From: a virus
Lineage: Duplodnaviria > Caudoviricetes
DNA: 64,000 nucleotides
Reading direction: 5' to 3' (one strand)
Virus record (IMG/VR): IMGVR_UViG_3300032007_000078
Span: 4,118 to 68,117 of that record
In this document: one piece after another, positions 1,212-50,624 of the stretch
Layout: each line of letters starts with the position of its first letter
How positions within the stretch are numbered: the first letter of the stretch is position 1
The notes under the pieces: generated by a model
Told to the model about the DNA's origin: nothing
Seen by the model: the letters and a program-made list of their open reading frames with translations, nothing else
Databases searched by the model: none
Made by a program: the position numbers and the translations under genes

Positions 1212-4200
1212 TGAATGAAGCAGATAAGTTAAGATAGGAAAGAATTGATATGCCTGGTTCTGAGAAATTTACACGTCCAGAGGAGATTAAAGCTCTTTCT
1301 AAATATCTTGGAGCCATACGAGAGACGATAGATAGTAGTATAGAATTAGAGAGTCAGCTTCTTGGTGTACCTGGGAGAACTACTGGTAAGATTCCTGAGA
1401 TTTCCAAGTTATCAGAGAAGGTAATAGAGAAACCAGATAATCAGAACCAGGAAATAAGTAATTTAGGTAAGAAGAAGGTTAAGGTATCAGATAAAGAAAT
1501 ATCGGTTCCTAAGTTATCTACAAAAAAATTAGGTATTTCTGATCTTAGAGAATTAGGTTTATCTGAGAAAATGTAGAAACTTGAAGGAACATAGGAAGTT
1601 GATTCATTACGTTCAAAGATTCTATAGTTACAAGATACAAGAGATCAAGAATTAAGTAAAACAAGACTGGACCTAGAAGATCAAAGACAAGTCGAGTTAG
1701 AAGAAAAGCGACTTGATATAAAAGATCTTCCTGATATTAGTCTTGAAGATAAAAAACTTGATCTATCTGGTATTAAAGAATCGGAATTATCAGAAAAGCG
1801 CTTAGAAATTCATGACGATAGAAAATACGGCCTCTCAGATAAACGCATAGATATTTCTGATATCCCCGAATCTAAGTTATCCGAGAAGAGATTAGATATT
1901 TCCGACCTACGAGATACAAAGTTAGGAGATAAAAAATTAGAGTTATCCGATGAGAGATAGGTAGAACTTTCAGAGAAGCGTTTAGATATTGAGGCCGAAG
2001 AAATATCGTCATTAGAAAATAAGCGCTTAGATCTCTATGAAATACCTGAGTCTAACCTGAGTGATAAAAAAATATAGATCTCAGATACTAGAGAAACAAG
2101 GCTAAGTGATAAACTTCTGAATCTATTTGATATCCCTGAACCTGAATTATCCGAGAAGAGACTAGATATTTCAGACCTACGAGAAACTGAATTATCTGAA
2201 AAAAGATTAAATATTTCAGACCTACGAGAAACTGAATTATCTGAAAAAAGATTAAATATTTCAGATCTTCGTGAAACTGAATTATCCGAGAAGAGACTAG
2301 ATATAGAAGATACTAGAGATCCTGAATTATCTGAAAAAAGATTAAATATAGAAGATACTAGGGAAACTGAGTTACCTGAAAAAAGACTAGATATTACAGA
2401 CCTTCGAGAAACTGAATTATCCGAGAAAAGATTAGATATTTCCGACCTACGAGAAACAGAGTTACCTGAGAAGAGATTAGATATAGAAGATACTAGAGAT
2501 CCTGAATTATCTGAAAAAAGATTAAATATTTTCGATCTTCGTGAACCTGAATTATCTGAAAAAAGATTAGATATAGAAGATACTAGGGAAACTGAATTAT
2601 CCGAGAAGAGATTAGATATAGAAGATACTAGAGATCCTGAATTATCTGAAAAAAGATTAGATATAGAAGATACTAGGGAAACTGAGTTATCCGAGAAAAG
2701 ATTAGATATTTCAGACCTTCGAGAAACTGAGTTATCTGAGAAGAGATTAGATATAGAAGATACTAGAGATCCTGAACTTTCCGATAAAATAATTTCTCCA
2801 GAAGGTAATTATGTAGATGTCAAGATTTCTAAGACTCTTGATGAAACAGACTAGAATTCTTTAGGTGAAATTAAACTTTCAGATGATCGGGAAATTTAGA
2901 TAGATAAAACTCTAGATGATACAGAAGAACATTCAGAAGGTAGAATTAAGTTTACTGATCTTCGTGAGTATAAGTTAAATAAAACTCTGGAAGATACTGA
3001 AAATAATTCTAAAGGTAAAATAAAACTCTCAGATATTTGGAATCCGACTGAAATTGATGAGACTCTGGAAGATACTGAGGAACATTCTAAGGGTAGAGTA
3101 AAAATTTCGGATACCAGAGAAATTTAGATAGATAAAACTCTAGACAATACAGAAGAACATTCGATAGGAAATATTAAAATTTCTGATACTCGAGAACTTT
3201 CCGAACTTGCTAGTAGTATTAAAGATCTAGGTAAAATTGAAGACACTAGGGAAGATTTAGAATTACCTTAGGATCTTGAAGATACAGAAGAAAATTCTAG
3301 GAGTAAGGTTTTTCTAGATGATACTCGGGGGAATCTAAAACTTGAGGATAATATAGAAGGTCTAACTAATAAAAATCCAGGAGGTGAAATAGAAGAGTTA
3401 CATAATTCTTTAATTGCATAGGTTGAAAATATGCATGGTACTCCTGAAGAACTATATGATTCTCTTATCTAGATGGCATCTGATTATTCTAAATGGTCAG
3501 AACTAGAGGAAGAAGATTATGAGTCTCTAAGGAAATTAACAAATAAACTTTCTGATGATGACTTATATAATGTAGCTATAACAATGGCTTCTTCTGGTGA
3601 AAGAGGTTCTGGTGATGCGTCTAGTTGGTTTTCCAAAGTATCTGCACAAATGTCTTCTTACCTAAGTAGTGCTAATGCTTCTACCGAAAGGCTTAAAGGA
3701 TTTATTGAGGCTTCTTAGAATAATGCAGAGATGGCTATTCAAGGAGCAAAAGCTATAGAACTATCTTCATATAATAATTCAGAGATTACAGAATTAGGTG
3801 ATAAAAAAGTAAATCTAGAATATAATACCTCCAAAACTAATAGTATTTGGGCAAAAGCAGCTGAGTCTACTAGTGGGATGAGTAGTATAACAAGAAGAGA
3901 TGCTATAGATAAGCTGATTATATAGATGCTTGACAATGGTAGAAGAAAAGTTAGTCTACCAGGAAATCTAGTAGATGTCAAAGGCCTTGTAGGAAATGTG
4001 ACTGGATTACTTACTGGAACTGCACAACATCCTAATCCAATAAATCATCCTTTATCTGTTGCTGGAGTAAAACTTCCTGGTGGTCCTGGTGATGCTTTTT
4101 ATCAACCCGCCAATAGTAGAATTTCATTTAATTCACCTCCCGATATTCCTGTATTCTATAATTCTTACTGGAGTTCTGAAAGTTTTAAATCTACATTATA

Positions 4201-41814: not shown

Positions 41815-43263
41815 ATGGCTGATTTAAGAATTTTTGTTGAATGTTCAACTAAGGCAGTTTTTGACGCACAGCTCGATGCTGGTAACATTACTAACAGACA
41901 CCTCGTTCTTATTAAGAGCACAAACCAGATTTATCATAATGGTGTTTACTATGGCTTGAGCGCAGCTGATGCTGAGAAGCTTTCTGCCGTTTATAACCGT
42001 AAGGAGTTTGGTTATGTATCTGACGGTACAAATACATACCGTTCTAGCGCTGCCGAAGGTACTCTGACTATTACCGAGAGCTCAGAGACAGGTGAAGTAC
42101 TTGATGTTACCGTTGGTGCTAGCGGTGTTACCATTAAGTTGGTTGCTACTACAGGTACTACCAATGGTACTATCTCTCTGAACGGTACTGAGGTTGCTGT
42201 TGCTGGTCTTGGTAGTGCAGCTTTCACTGAGACAAGTGCTTATGCTACTGCTGCTCAGGGTACCAAGGCTGACAATGCCGTTCCTAATACAAGAACCGTT
42301 AATGGTCATGAACTTAGCGCAGACGTAACTGTTACAAAGGGTGACGTTGGTTTGGGTAATGTTGACAATGAGAGCAAGGCTACAATGTTCACAAGCCCTG
42401 AGTTCACTGGCACACCTATTGCTCCTACCGCAGCTCTTGGTACTAACACAACTCAAATCGCTACCACAGCTTTCGTAAAGGCTGAGATCAACGACGTTCT
42501 GGCTGCTGCCGACGCTCTCGTATTTAAGGGAACTGTTAACACAACTGATGGTCTGCCCGCTAACCACACTCTTGGTTGGACTTACATCGTAGCTGAGGCT
42601 GGTACATATGCTGGTCAAGTTTGCGAAGTTGGTGACATGATCGTTTGTAAGGCTACTGGTACAGTTGCTTCTAATTCTGACTGGACTGTAGTTCAGACAA
42701 ATATCAATGGTGCCGTTACTGGTCCTGCTAGTGCTGTAGATGGCAACGTTGCTATCTTCAATGGTACAACAGGTAAGATCATCGCTGACTCTGGTTTGAC
42801 ACTTGGTAAGAGCGTTCCTTCTACTGGTGTATTCGATGACCACAAGTATACCTTTGCTTCTGGTACAGATGGTAGCTTTACTGTAACTGAAGACGTTGAT
42901 GGTGAGAATTCTTCAACTGGTTCTCCTCAGACTATTTCTATCGGTAAGCCCTCTACCGCTGGCACAGCTGATCAGGTTGGTCACGATCTGTCTATTACCC
43001 TTGGTGCTGCTGGTACAGCTCAGACCTTCGACGGTTCTGCTGACCTGAGCGTTACTGTAACTCCTTCTGCTATTGGTGCAGCCGAGGCTGTTCACACCCA
43101 CTCTGCAGACGAGGTTACTGCTATGGGTACAGTTTCTAATCCTTATAGCAAGCCCAGTTCTGTAGCTGCTGCTATTTCTAATAGCGATAGCCTGCAGACT
43201 GCAATTGGTAAGCTCGAGGCTATGTTTGACTGGGTAGTTTATAACGCTGAACCAGAGCCCTAA
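41815..43263 (+). CDS. tail fibre protein
   Basis: SPEFTGTPIAPTAALGTNTTQIATTAFV fibre repeat, VTKGDVGLGNVDN motif, Ala/Thr/Gly-rich; no TAG. Confidence 0.85.
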   Translation: MADLRIFVECSTKAVFDAQLDAGNITNRHLVLIKSTNQIYHNGVYYGLSAADAEKLSAVYNRKEFGYVSDGTNTYRSSAAEGTLTITESSETGEVLDVTVGASGVTIKLVATTGTTNGTISLNGTEVAVAGLGSAAFTETSAYATAAQGTKADNAVPNTRTVNGHELSADVTVTKGDVGLGNVDNESKATMFTSPEFTGTPIAPTAALGTNTTQIATTAFVKAEINDVLAAADALVFKGTVNTTDGLPANHTLGWTYIVAEAGTYAGQVCEVGDMIVCKATGTVASNSDWTVVQTNINGAVTGPASAVDGNVAIFNGTTGKIIADSGLTLGKSVPSTGVFDDHKYTFASGTDGSFTVTEDVDGENSSTGSPQTISIGKPSTAGTADQVGHDLSITLGAAGTAQTFDGSADLSVTVTPSAIGAAEAVHTHSADEVTAMGTVSNPYSKPSSVAAAISNSDSLQTAIGKLEAMFDWVVYNAEPEP

Positions 43264-46881: not shown

Positions 46882-48345
46882 ATGGCAGAACTCGCGAAAA
46901 TTAATGGCTATGATATAAGAGATAAAAAACTAGCCGACGAAGGAACCGTAACGGATGCTGGTTCCACTGACTACGTGCTCCTGGAAGATACTAATGGAAA
47001 TTATCAGAAAATCTCTAAAAGTAACTTCACAGAAGCTATCCGTAATACATTAGGTGAAATCCTGATGACTAATGATAAAGGAACTTCTATTACTAGCGTT
47101 CCTGTGATCTCCGGAGACGGTACTTCACTCGATCCATATGACCTCGGAAGTGCTACAACTGAAAATTTGGCATCAGTTCTGGGCGGAAGTATGTCTGCTG
47201 GAGAGCTTGTAAATATAAGTCTAGTTACAAATCAAAGCTCCTCTTCCTATGATTCTGATTTAATTGGTGCTACTATTACTATTACAGACAACACAGAATC
47301 TACAATTTTACTTAATACAACTTGGGATGGAACAGATATAAGCTTTGAGATACCTGTTCCTGTAAACTATACTATTTCTGTTGGGTCTATTACCGGATAT
47401 AAGACACCTAGTTCTATTACTTATGATTCTAGAACAGGTCGTAATAGAAATTTAGAATTTCAATATTAGACTGAAGTAGTAACTGTTAATTGTTCAGCTA
47501 GCAATGGTTCTTCTGTAGCAGGACAAAAGGTAACAGTTTATGGTACTCAATATACATTAGATGCTACTGGAATAATTACTACAAACATCGCATACAGTAC
47601 TTCTTATTCTGTTATTGCTGGTTCATGGGATGGGTATGATTCTCCTGCTAATTAGACATTTACTGCAGGTCAAACTACAAGATCAGTAAATGTAGTCTGG
47701 AAATATAATCCGATAGCTGTTGATATGGGTCTACCATCTGGAGTAAAATGGGCAAAAATGAATATTGATGTTACTAGACCTAATAAATTTGCAGCGTCAG
47801 AATATCAATATGAATGCAGTTTTTTTAGTTGGGGTAATGTTTAGGGGCATAATCCAACGTCAGAGTCTGCTTTTAGTTATGATTGGGGAACTAGTAATGA
47901 TGGCGCACCTTATGTTTCTACTACAGGACATTCATTAACTGGAGATATTCCAGTAAGTGCAACTTATGATGCAGCTAGAGCAAATTGTGGCGCACCTTGG
48001 CGTATGCCTACTGCTACAGAATTCCAAGAATTAATAGATAATTGTGATTTTATTAATCCAGATGGATCTGTAATTCCTACATCTACAGCTAATAAACTTG
48101 TTACTGTTAATGGTATTGTAGGTATCTATTTAAAATCTAAAAATAATAGTAATAGGTTATTCTTTGCTTGCTCTGGTAGCGGTTACCAGACTTCTTGGAG
48201 CAATCGTACTACCTACGGTAACTACTGGTCTTCCACTCTCTATTCTGCTACTTTTGGTGAGTTCTTGTACTTCTACTCAGGTGGTGTTTATCCTTAGCAC
48301 TACAACGTTCGGTTCCTCGGCTTTACGGTTAGGCCAGTTCAGTAA
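46882..48345 (+). CDS. DGR target: tail fibre tip adhesin with C-terminal CLec (Fibrobacter major paralogous domain-like) fold, 487 aa, 4 TAG
   Basis: AVDMGLPSGVKWA, FFSWG, YDAARANCGAPWRMPTATEFQEL, GNYWSST, VRPVQ; VR at the 3' end. Confidence 0.92.
48159..48342 (+). repeat. DGR variable repeat (VR)
   Basis: Matches TR 49163-49346; encodes FFACSGSGYQTSWSNRTTYGNYWSSTLYSATFGEFLYFYSGGVYPQ(TAG)HYNVRFLGFTVRPVQ. Confidence 0.97.
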
Positions 48346-48377: not shown

Positions 48378-48429
48378 AATTTGTGCCACAAACCCGCTCT
48401 CTCAAAGAGCGTGGTACAAGGCACAAATT
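48378..48429. promoter_or_regulatory. hairpin/cruciform downstream of VR (DGR target-recognition element)
   Basis: AATTTGTGCC/GGCACAAATT outer stem with inner CGCTCT-CTCAA-AGAGCG; position matches known DGR homing hairpins. Confidence 0.7.
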
Positions 48430-48461
48430 CTATAAAATTAAATAATAATATATAATAGTAT

Positions 48462-49022
48462 ATGACAATAACAGAAATTATTGACATTGAGAATAATAGA
48501 AAATAGCCAGATCAATTTGGAATTATTCACCTAATAAAAGAAGGTAATTTTTATAGAGCACATGATTGGAGTGCTTGGTTAATGACTACTTTTCCAATAG
48601 GTGAAGCTATTAATACTCCTTTAAAAATATCAGCTAAGAAATTGAAAGATGGTTATGTTGAAGCTTGGGTAGGGTTTCCTGTAACTTCAATATAGAAATA
48701 TATACCTAGTGATGACTCTGTTGTATTTAAACCTATTTCCGAAAATTAGATAGATGTACATATTCCATTACCCGAAGAATATCTATAGTAGAATTTTGAT
48801 AATATTAGAAATTCTATAGATAAATGGAAAAATTAGTTACCTATTTTGGATAATAAGAAATCTAAAAGAGAAGATCATGAAATTTAGGAAATAGGTCCAC
48901 GGATTACTAGGATAACTGACATTGTTGGTAGTATTCTTTCATTTTCTTTGGTAGAATCTTCCCCATTAGATGCTTGGGAATTTATTAGAAAACTATAGAA
49001 ATAGATATCTATATTATTTTAA
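48462..49022 (+). CDS. DGR accessory protein, MutS domain I-like (MSL), 186 aa, 9 TAG; absent from the ORF track
   Basis: IIHLIKEGNFYRAHDWSAWL resembles MutS-I; lies between VR and TR where accessory genes sit; ends TAA. Confidence 0.75.
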
Positions 49023-49162: not shown

Positions 49163-49346
49163 ATTCTTTGCTTGCTCTGGTAACGGTAACCAGACTTCTT
49201 GGAACAATCGTACTACGAACGGTAACTACTGGTCTTCCACTCTCAATTCTGCTACTAATGGTAAGAACTTGAACTTCAACTCAGGTGGTGTTAATCCTTA
49301 GAACAACAACAATCGGTTCAACGGCTTAACGGTTAGGCCAGTTCAG
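49163..49346 (+). ncRNA. DGR template repeat (TR)
   Basis: 17 AAY codons plus one AAG and one TAG in the target frame; adenine-specific divergence from VR. Confidence 0.97.
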
Positions 49347-49373
49347 CACTCAACTTCGAACTATTATTGTAAT

Positions 49374-50624
49374 ATGATAATAACCAGAAATTAGTTATTA
49401 ATTGATCTATATTCTGCATATTATGATGCCCGACGCCATAAGACTAAAAGATCTTATGTTAAATAGTGGGAATCAAACTTAAAAGATAATATGGAGAATC
49501 TTTGTGATGAACTATTAAATAGAAACTATAAACCACTTCCATCAAAGTGTTTTATTATAGATTATCCTAAAAAACGTGAAATATTTGCTGCTAGATTTAA
49601 AGATAGAATTGTTCATCATTTATACTTTAATTATACTCATTAGCTATTTGAGAGAACATTTATTTAGGACTCATATAGCTGTATTAAAGAGCGCGGAACT
49701 CATTATGGTATCAATAGAATAACAACTTTCTGCAGAAAAGAATCACAAAATTGGTAGAGAAAGTGTTATGGACTACATCTTGATATTCGTGGCTATTTTA
49801 TGCATATTGTTAGAAATAAACTACTAACAATTGCAATCAATACCTTGAGAAAAATGTCTACACACCGTATCAATAAACATTCCTCAACTCAATGGTAGGA
49901 TATTTTAGATATGAATTTTATATATTGGCTAACAAAAGAAATTATTTCGGTAGATCCTAGAATAAATTGTATTATGTTAGGAAATTTATCTGATTGGGAT
50001 AGTTTAGATCCGGAAAAATCCATGTTAAAACTTAAAGATGGATTAGGATTGCCAATAGGAAATTTAACTTCTCAATTATTTTCTAATGTTTATTTAAATC
50101 CTCTAGATCAATTTATAAAACGTTCATTGAAATGTAAAAATTATGGTAGATATGTAGATGATGCTATTATAATTAGTCATAGTAAATCTTATCTATTAAA
50201 ACAAGTACCTATGATTAAAGATTTCTTAAAGAACGAATTAGGATTGGATTTACACTTAGGAAAATTAAGAATTAGTGAAGTACATAAAGGTATAGAATTT
50301 TTAGGAGTATTTATAAAACCTTATAGAATTTATACTTCGCGAAAAACCCTAAGTCGTATTGAATAGAAATTAGATCTTTTAGATTTTAAAAAGCCATAGA
50401 AAGTTATTAGAAGCGTTAATTCATATTTAGGAATATTTTAGCATACGGCATCATTCAATATTAGACGAAAGCTATTTCTAAAGAAAGAGTATTTAAGGCT
50501 TGGCGTATTTAATGTTGATATGACAAAAATAGTAGATAGAAAATTCTTTTATACATTAAATTCTAAAAATCATGAGAAAAGTATCAGGTCAAATAGACGA
50601 CTTTGCTTATATTAGCGAAGATGA
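49374..50624 (+). CDS. DGR reverse transcriptase (416 aa, 10 TAG)
   Basis: KRE..AA.F.DRIVHH, DSYSCIKERGTH, LDIRGYFMHI, DGR-type GLPIGNLTSQ and RYVDD; only continuous if TAG is sense. Confidence 0.95.

Follow-up and report, generated by a model that had tools for sequence, protein, structure and literature searches.

A 64,000-nucleotide stretch of phage DNA (hereafter the window) carries what is most probably a canonical, active DGR of a large, AT-rich rumen phage in which TAG stands for Gln. The template repeat (TR) of this DGR contains a TAG and an AAG codon in the frame of the target gene. We attribute both codons, with the same degree of confidence, to recoding acting together with AT pressure, and regard the freedom from stops of the sequence library that the template can produce as a by-product.

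The window encodes a complete DGR

The locus is a complete DGR, comprising a target gene that ends in the variable repeat (VR), a hairpin, an accessory gene, the TR and a reverse transcriptase (RT) gene. Its features are as follows.

46882-48345, plus strand: DGR target gene, 487 aa, with four in-frame TAG codons; the ORF stays open only when TAG is read as sense (Gln)
48159-48342, plus strand: VR, the final 61 codons of the target gene, from the repeat search and TR/VR comparison
48259-48261, plus strand: GAG (Glu) codon of the VR, derived from the TR AAG, from the TR/VR comparison
48295-48297, plus strand: in-frame TAG of the VR, read as Gln 472 of the target protein, from the target frame
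48378-48429, plus strand: perfect 10-nt inverted repeat, AATTTGTGCC / GGCACAAATT, with arms 32 nt apart, 33 nt past the target stop
48462-49022, plus strand: accessory gene between VR and TR, 186 aa, with nine in-frame TAG codons; ORF under TAG as Gln
49163-49346, plus strand: TR, with 51 adenines and 17 AAY codons in the target frame, from the repeat search
49263-49265, plus strand: AAG (Lys) codon of the TR, from the target frame
49299-49301, plus strand: TAG codon of the TR, from the target frame
49374-50624, plus strand: DGR RT gene, 416 aa, with 10 in-frame TAG codons and a TGA stop, from Pfam, PHROG, motifs and alignment

The repeat search returned a single pair (48159-48342 and 49163-49346), 184 nt long and 89% identical. 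Twenty of the 21 differences between the two copies fall at TR adenines, with A>T the most frequent change in the VR (14 of 20); the sole difference at another base is a synonymous G>C (ACG>ACC) at 49217 of the TR and 48213 of the VR. At this position the four other sequencing runs described below all have G, as in the TR, and the C is private to the window. Three features show that the pair is not a chance repeat: the adenine specificity of its mismatches, the DGR-type RT immediately downstream and the layout that it shares with 33 homologous cassettes. In 23 related cassettes, TR and VR likewise differ at TR adenines.

The target gene stands at the end of a block of tail-fibre genes, and the genes upstream of it match PHROG tail-fibre families. 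Towards its C terminus (residues 333-486) the target protein has weak matches to the Pfam families Fib_succ_major and Lcl_C, below the curated cut-offs. A protein search returned 204 homologues at E<=1e-10, and homologues of the target carry PF09603, PF07603 and PF26707, weakly suggesting that the C terminus may form a C-type-lectin-like domain that holds the VR. Another tail-fibre gene of the window (41815-43263) is free of TAG and has a GC content of 46%, where the window has ~33%; its Lys codons are 17 AAG and 0 AAA and its Gln codons 8 CAG and 2 CAA, the reverse of the rest of the genome. Its GC content and codon usage suggest that this fibre gene may have been acquired recently.

The RT gene product matches Pfam RVT_1 (8.8e-12) and PHROG 1423 (2.8e-85), has the motifs LPIGNLTSQ and YVDD in an alignment with the RTs of two related loci, L004 and L005, and is 67% and 61% identical to these, respectively. 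A tblastn search of the RT against GenBank phages matched phage DGR RTs, in single unbroken pieces only and at no more than 36% identity; a nucleotide search of the cassette against the same phages gave no match. The accessory gene has a homologue at the equivalent position in L004 and L005, and its 186-aa product has no Pfam or PHROG match. The TR is non-coding and ends 27 nt upstream of the RT gene, the reading frame of which is open upstream as far as a TTG at 49269, inside the TR.

Homology between TR and VR stops at ...GTTCAG, after which the VR has TAA and the TR has CAC; the same is true of all relatives. The inverted repeat at 48378-48429 occupies the same position as the hairpin/cruciform that marks DGR target sites (PMC3240598). 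We regard the end of homology and the downstream inverted repeat as putative target-site signals of the DGR. The AT-rich spacer from the hairpin to the start of the accessory gene (48429-48462) shows many indels of 1-5 nt between samples, and several unrelated contigs start or end in it.

Evidence for TAG as a Gln codon

Treating TAG as a sense codon raised the summed length of ORFs of at least 100 aa from 16,991 to 25,328 residues and gave continuous same-strand genes of up to 2,137 aa. All 32 tabulated ORFs terminate in TAA (31) or TGA (the RT gene, the only one to do so) and none in TAG. When the DGR proteins were aligned, window TAGs stood opposite Q in both L004 and L005 at RT positions 7, 98 and 128, target position 472 and accessory position 181, and opposite Q in one of the two at RT position 90 and accessory position 96. 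These alignments and reading frames indicate that TAG is a translated Gln codon in this phage. Across the 32 ORFs, Gln is encoded by TAG 132 times, CAA 242 times and CAG 120 times, giving TAG 132 of 494 Gln codons (27%); in the three DGR genes it accounts for 23 of 38 (61%).

We infer that a suppressor tRNA (anticodon CUA), presumably encoded elsewhere in the genome, decodes TAG and that the TAG of the VR would be translated as Gln by this route. A tRNA search of the window and of the remaining 4.1 kb of the 68,117-bp IMG/VR contig gave no hit; as CheckV rates the contig only 18% complete, the whole genome being estimated at roughly 370 kb, this absence is not evidence against a suppressor.

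The TAG of the VR is codon 472 of the target gene and the TAA is codon 488, with 15 codons between them. A standard-code gene caller ends a fragment at the TAG (P0004, 97 aa, ...GGVYP), as would be the case if the codon were a true stop that ended the target protein at Pro471 and left the last 48 nt of the VR as an untranslated repeat. We give this reading almost no credence. The conserved C-terminal 15 residues (...RFxGFTVRPVQ) come after the TAG: the 15 codons encode the family-wide ...R-F-x-G-F-x-V-R-P-V-Q, and the TAA lies exactly where all relatives end. Beyond the TAG, the TR adenines still follow the AAY pattern of the reading frame, with mutations at the first and second positions of codons, and the target has three more TAGs upstream, with 10 in the RT gene and nine in the accessory gene. 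Under the standard code, DGR finders and gene callers truncate the target 15 codons early and miss the RT and accessory genes.

Stops reachable from the template

In the target frame the TR has 61 codons, including 12 AAC and 5 AAT (17 AAY in all), one AAG (GAG in the VR) and one TAG (TAG also in the VR). An earlier, sequence-only reading of the window had placed these codons, counted AAY, AAG and TAG, put the TAG 15 codons before the TAA and estimated a library of ~15^17 variants; a recount confirmed all of this, the 17 AAY codons giving 15^17 = 9.85e19 variants.

That AAY cannot yield a stop is the standard rule for templates (bioRxiv 10.1101/2024.11.15.621889; PMC5758913). Enumerating all substitutions at TR adenines, we found that TAG is the only reachable stop, obtained from AAG and from TAG itself, and that no TR codon reaches TAA or TGA. 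From AAG, mutation to NNG makes 13 residues reachable, with TAG the sole stop. The enumeration thus upholds the proposal that a library free of stops requires TAG to be a sense codon.

The two template codons in related DGRs

An RT-profile scan of IMG/VR identified 35 loci (L004-L038), and in 33 of these a homologous TR-like repeat immediately precedes the RT gene; L016 and L018 resemble VR copies rather than TRs. The RT genes beside all 33 repeats have 0 in-frame TAGs, except for L038, where the RT coordinates do not give one open frame.

The repeats of the relatives share the template motif ...GGVNP-Q-NNNN-R.... At the site of the window's TAG, 28 of the 33 repeats have CAG and five have GCC, GCG or ACG; of 93 homologous variable proteins in public data, 80 have Q and five have R at this residue. 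The sequence-only reading had put PQNNNNR at this position in related templates and proposed aligning homologous TRs at the PQN; both the CAG count and the 80 of 93 proteins with Gln bear this out. At the AAG site, the repeats have CGG (18), CGC (3), CGT (1) or AGG (2), that is, Arg in 24 of 33, and TAC in the other 9, and the 93 proteins have R in 66 and K in 4. AAG is unusual in a TR: in-frame AAG is absent at every codon of the relatives' 33 repeats, in keeping with the strong depletion of AAG, AGA and AAA reported for natural TRs (bioRxiv 10.1101/2025.03.24.644984).

These comparisons indicate that the TR TAG arose synonymously from CAG at a conserved Gln, is borne by the TR and was copied into the VR, and that the TR AAG encodes a Lys in place of a conserved Arg. 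The CAG-to-TAG change must reside in the TR because retrohoming overwrites the VR and would erase a change made there only, which supports the suggestion that it spread to the VR by retrohoming. The locus also provides a clean internal proof that TAG is Gln, in that the CAG of 28 of 33 relatives became TAG inside a conserved fold.

Exact-pattern scans for TAG or AAG at the two sites yielded no second recoded member of the family. Two candidates for a family template with TAG at the Gln site, L040 (from viral_contigs) and L041 (from metagenome_contigs), proved to be chance matches and not TRs, and four pattern matches in viral_contigs for AAG at the Arg/Lys site were also chance matches. A protein search for VR alleles of the same phage returned only the window's own 97-aa fragment P0004, all other hits being no more than 68% identical.

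Variation at the two sites in natural populations

The DGR locus was present in 20 ruminant gut runs from 12 studies, and contigs from four independent runs (X3, X4, X5 and X8) were compared with the window locus. The VR differences listed for these runs are all at TR-adenine positions, except for 48213, and the VR is also where assemblies break. X4 and, for 49226-49400, X3 have the same TR sequence as the window; the X4 contig that spans the locus has all of its 19 differences between 48437 and 48845. The DGR is diversifying its VR in natural populations now, and the TR is constant.

All of the relatives found are standard-code, with a GC content of 39-59% at the locus against 33% in the window, a pattern that would suit a cassette taken over from a standard-code phage not long ago and no longer working, its TAG a nonsense mutation. 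Such decay is extremely improbable, given that VRs differ among independent samples at TR-adenine sites while the TR stays constant, that the locus persists in 12 studies, and that the RT and accessory genes are fully ameliorated in composition (27-28% GC) and heavily furnished with TAG at conserved Gln sites.

The two codons of interest vary little. The VR codon derived from AAG remains AAG in two contigs of X4, in X5 and in X8, the window alone having GAG, and no TAG, Met or Trp allele was seen there among the VR alleles of X4, X5, X8 and the window. Among the differences listed for X3, X4, X5 and X8 there is no change at the VR TAG (48295-48297), which is likely to be retained in other samples.

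In run X5 (and also X8), short contigs corresponding to 49257-49353 of the window have a depth of ~48-940x versus 19x for the phage and are 85-93% identical to the 3' half of the TR; the loose ends of these contigs resemble an L025-type template. Their depth implies that, in the same sheep sample, related standard-code DGR phages greatly outnumber the phage of the window.

Across 24 non-redundant TR/VR pairs, AAY was changed in 304 of 397 cases (77%), CAG in 2 of 47, AGN in 1 of 38 and AGA in 0 of 4. At the conserved Gln site in particular, CAG was changed in the VRs of two of 20 relatives, to CGG in L035 and to TTG in L036. The assertion that the TAG site samples Gln, Ser, Trp and Leu is formally true but finds little echo in a family that changes the homologous CAG in only 2 of 20 VRs, compared with 77% of AAY codons. 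In L036 the TR (3281-3465) has CAG and the VR (~2236-2418) TTG, which needs a C>T besides the A>T, a non-adenine change beside a mutated adenine. L035 has two VR-like copies (1329-1511 and 2265-2447) upstream of one TR (3285-3467) and thus probably has two targets.

With the Bordetella RT, a G at +1 of an adenine lowers misincorporation and skews it to A>G (bioRxiv 10.1101/2025.03.24.644984). The rarity of change at CAG and AGN fits this context effect, although purifying selection at structural residues would look alike. As template adenines before G were almost never changed in VRs, the theoretical diversity from codons with a single A is overstated. In practice the AAG and TAG sites are mostly kept, as Lys and Gln.

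Proposed origin of the two codons

Third codon positions of the TR are 5% A and 44% T; third-position A amounts to 31-40% in neighbouring genes and third-position T to 23% in the relatives' TRs. The TR has no AAA and no AGA, for which ~1.9 and ~0.9 would be expected from the target gene's own usage, and CGG makes up 10 of the 608 Arg codons of the window. TAG being a common Gln codon in both the window and the DGR genes, its single occurrence among the three Gln codons of the TR needs no special explanation. To say, as the sequence-only reading did, that the template has adopted the recoded code was an overstatement, since a single TAG is to be expected when 27% of the window's Gln codons, and 61% of those of the DGR genes, are TAG.

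We propose that AT mutation pressure acts on a template that is selected against new adenines. The pressure would then be channelled to T and not to A, because new template adenines would become hypermutable. CAG>TAG is the AT-ward synonymous change of a Gln codon that brings no extra adenine, whereas CAG>CAA would add one even though CAA is the favourite Gln codon of the genome; recoding renders the C>T silent. The AAG probably arose by an Arg-to-Lys replacement, CGG>AGG>AAG, at the conserved basic position, which made that position mutable. The usual cost of AAG in a template is removed, because TAG, its only stop product, is harmless in code 15. On this scheme, the stop-free library would be a by-product of recoding rather than a demonstrated adaptation, and the locus shows two constraints, AT pressure and adenine avoidance, acting jointly on a non-coding template, with recoding silencing the C>T.

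The same codons could instead have been selected, the phage exploiting its recoding to widen the DGR repertoire by using AAG and TAG as diversification codons with stop-free access to Gln, Glu, Lys, Met and Trp, beyond what AAY can give. AAG does open 13 residues with TAG as the only stop, and the window VR has Glu at this site, which lies beyond the reach of AAY and shows that the site is used at least sometimes. AAG occurs in none of the 33 standard-code relatives, which fits a real constraint that has been lifted in this phage. Stop-capable codons are reported to be strongly depleted in natural TRs (bioRxiv 10.1101/2025.03.24.644984), and this TR lacks AAA and AGA, the codons able to reach real stops. 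With A>T the commonest VR change (14 of 20), TAG would also arise often from AAG, at a cost under the standard code. We nevertheless consider selection for diversification unlikely. We have one instance only; elsewhere in the family the AAG site holds a conserved Arg, and in this phage it is Lys in four of the five VR alleles seen, compared with 77% change for AAY, and TAG, Met and Trp are unseen among those five. Conservation of the amino acids shared with the relatives, plus general adenine avoidance, can account for the missing AAA and AGA. Standard-code phages, moreover, tolerate stop-capable codons in their templates: seven of the 33 repeats carry an in-frame AGA, adenine mutation of which can give TGA, contrary to the idea that such a codon requires recoding. 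What stands of the suggestion that AAG is a stop-free route to Gln, Glu, Lys, Met and Trp is its stop logic, which the enumeration supports; its diversifying use does not, with AAG at a conserved Arg site and unmutated in X4, X5 and X8.

A general form of the argument, that TAG-to-Gln recoding relaxes stop avoidance in templates and lets code-15 phages as a class use AAG and amber template codons to reach Glu, Lys, Gln, Met and Trp, seems to us equally doubtful. Were it true, such a relaxed template rule would link recoding and hypermutation functionally, beyond their mere co-residence. The wider idea, that recoding may enlarge the range of codons a DGR can produce without harm, is open to testing.

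Comparison with known DGRs

The prototype, the DGR of Bordetella phage BPP-1 (mtd-avd-TR-brt), resembles the window cassette in the common orientation of its target, accessory gene, TR and RT and in a VR at the C-terminal end of the target, within a lectin fold that is putative in the window, together with adenine-specific TR-to-VR differences, a hairpin after the VR and a tail-fibre target. It differs in that the three protein genes of the window all need TAG to be Gln, that the window template holds TAG and AAG, and that the window's accessory protein has no Avd Pfam match.

Much closer are the DGRs of the standard-code rumen and gut phages (L004-L038), with RTs 56-70% identical to that of the window, a homologous 184-nt TR/VR with the same 16-18 AAY positions and a common template, ...GGVNP-Q-NNNN-R-F-N-G-F-x-V-R-P-V-Q. 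These have CAG in place of the window's TAG, Arg codons or TAC in place of its AAG, and RTs without in-frame TAG.

DGR RT genes that contain amber codons are known from Zeta crAss-like phages (PMC12386605) and from code-15 persister phages of the infant gut (bioRxiv 10.1101/2023.08.07.552389). The DGRs of both share with the window the amber-bearing RT gene, the diversification of a tail fibre with a C-type-lectin domain (putative in the window) and code 15, but the phages belong to another lineage and habitat, the window phage being a giant phage of the rumen. We found no statement in either paper on TAG inside the TR or VR or on AAG template codons, and our literature search found no paper reporting a recoded stop codon inside a TR.

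In the DGRec system (bioRxiv 10.1101/2025.03.24.644984), low mutation before G parallels the rare change of CAG and AGN in the window's family. DGRec operates in the standard code and with the Bordetella RT, so its context rule comes from that RT and not from the window's, whereas in the window the TAG product is a sense codon. Set beside these systems, the window locus is that of an ordinary, active DGR belonging to a giant phage with code 15, and its template codons are a consequence of recoding that calls for no new mechanism.
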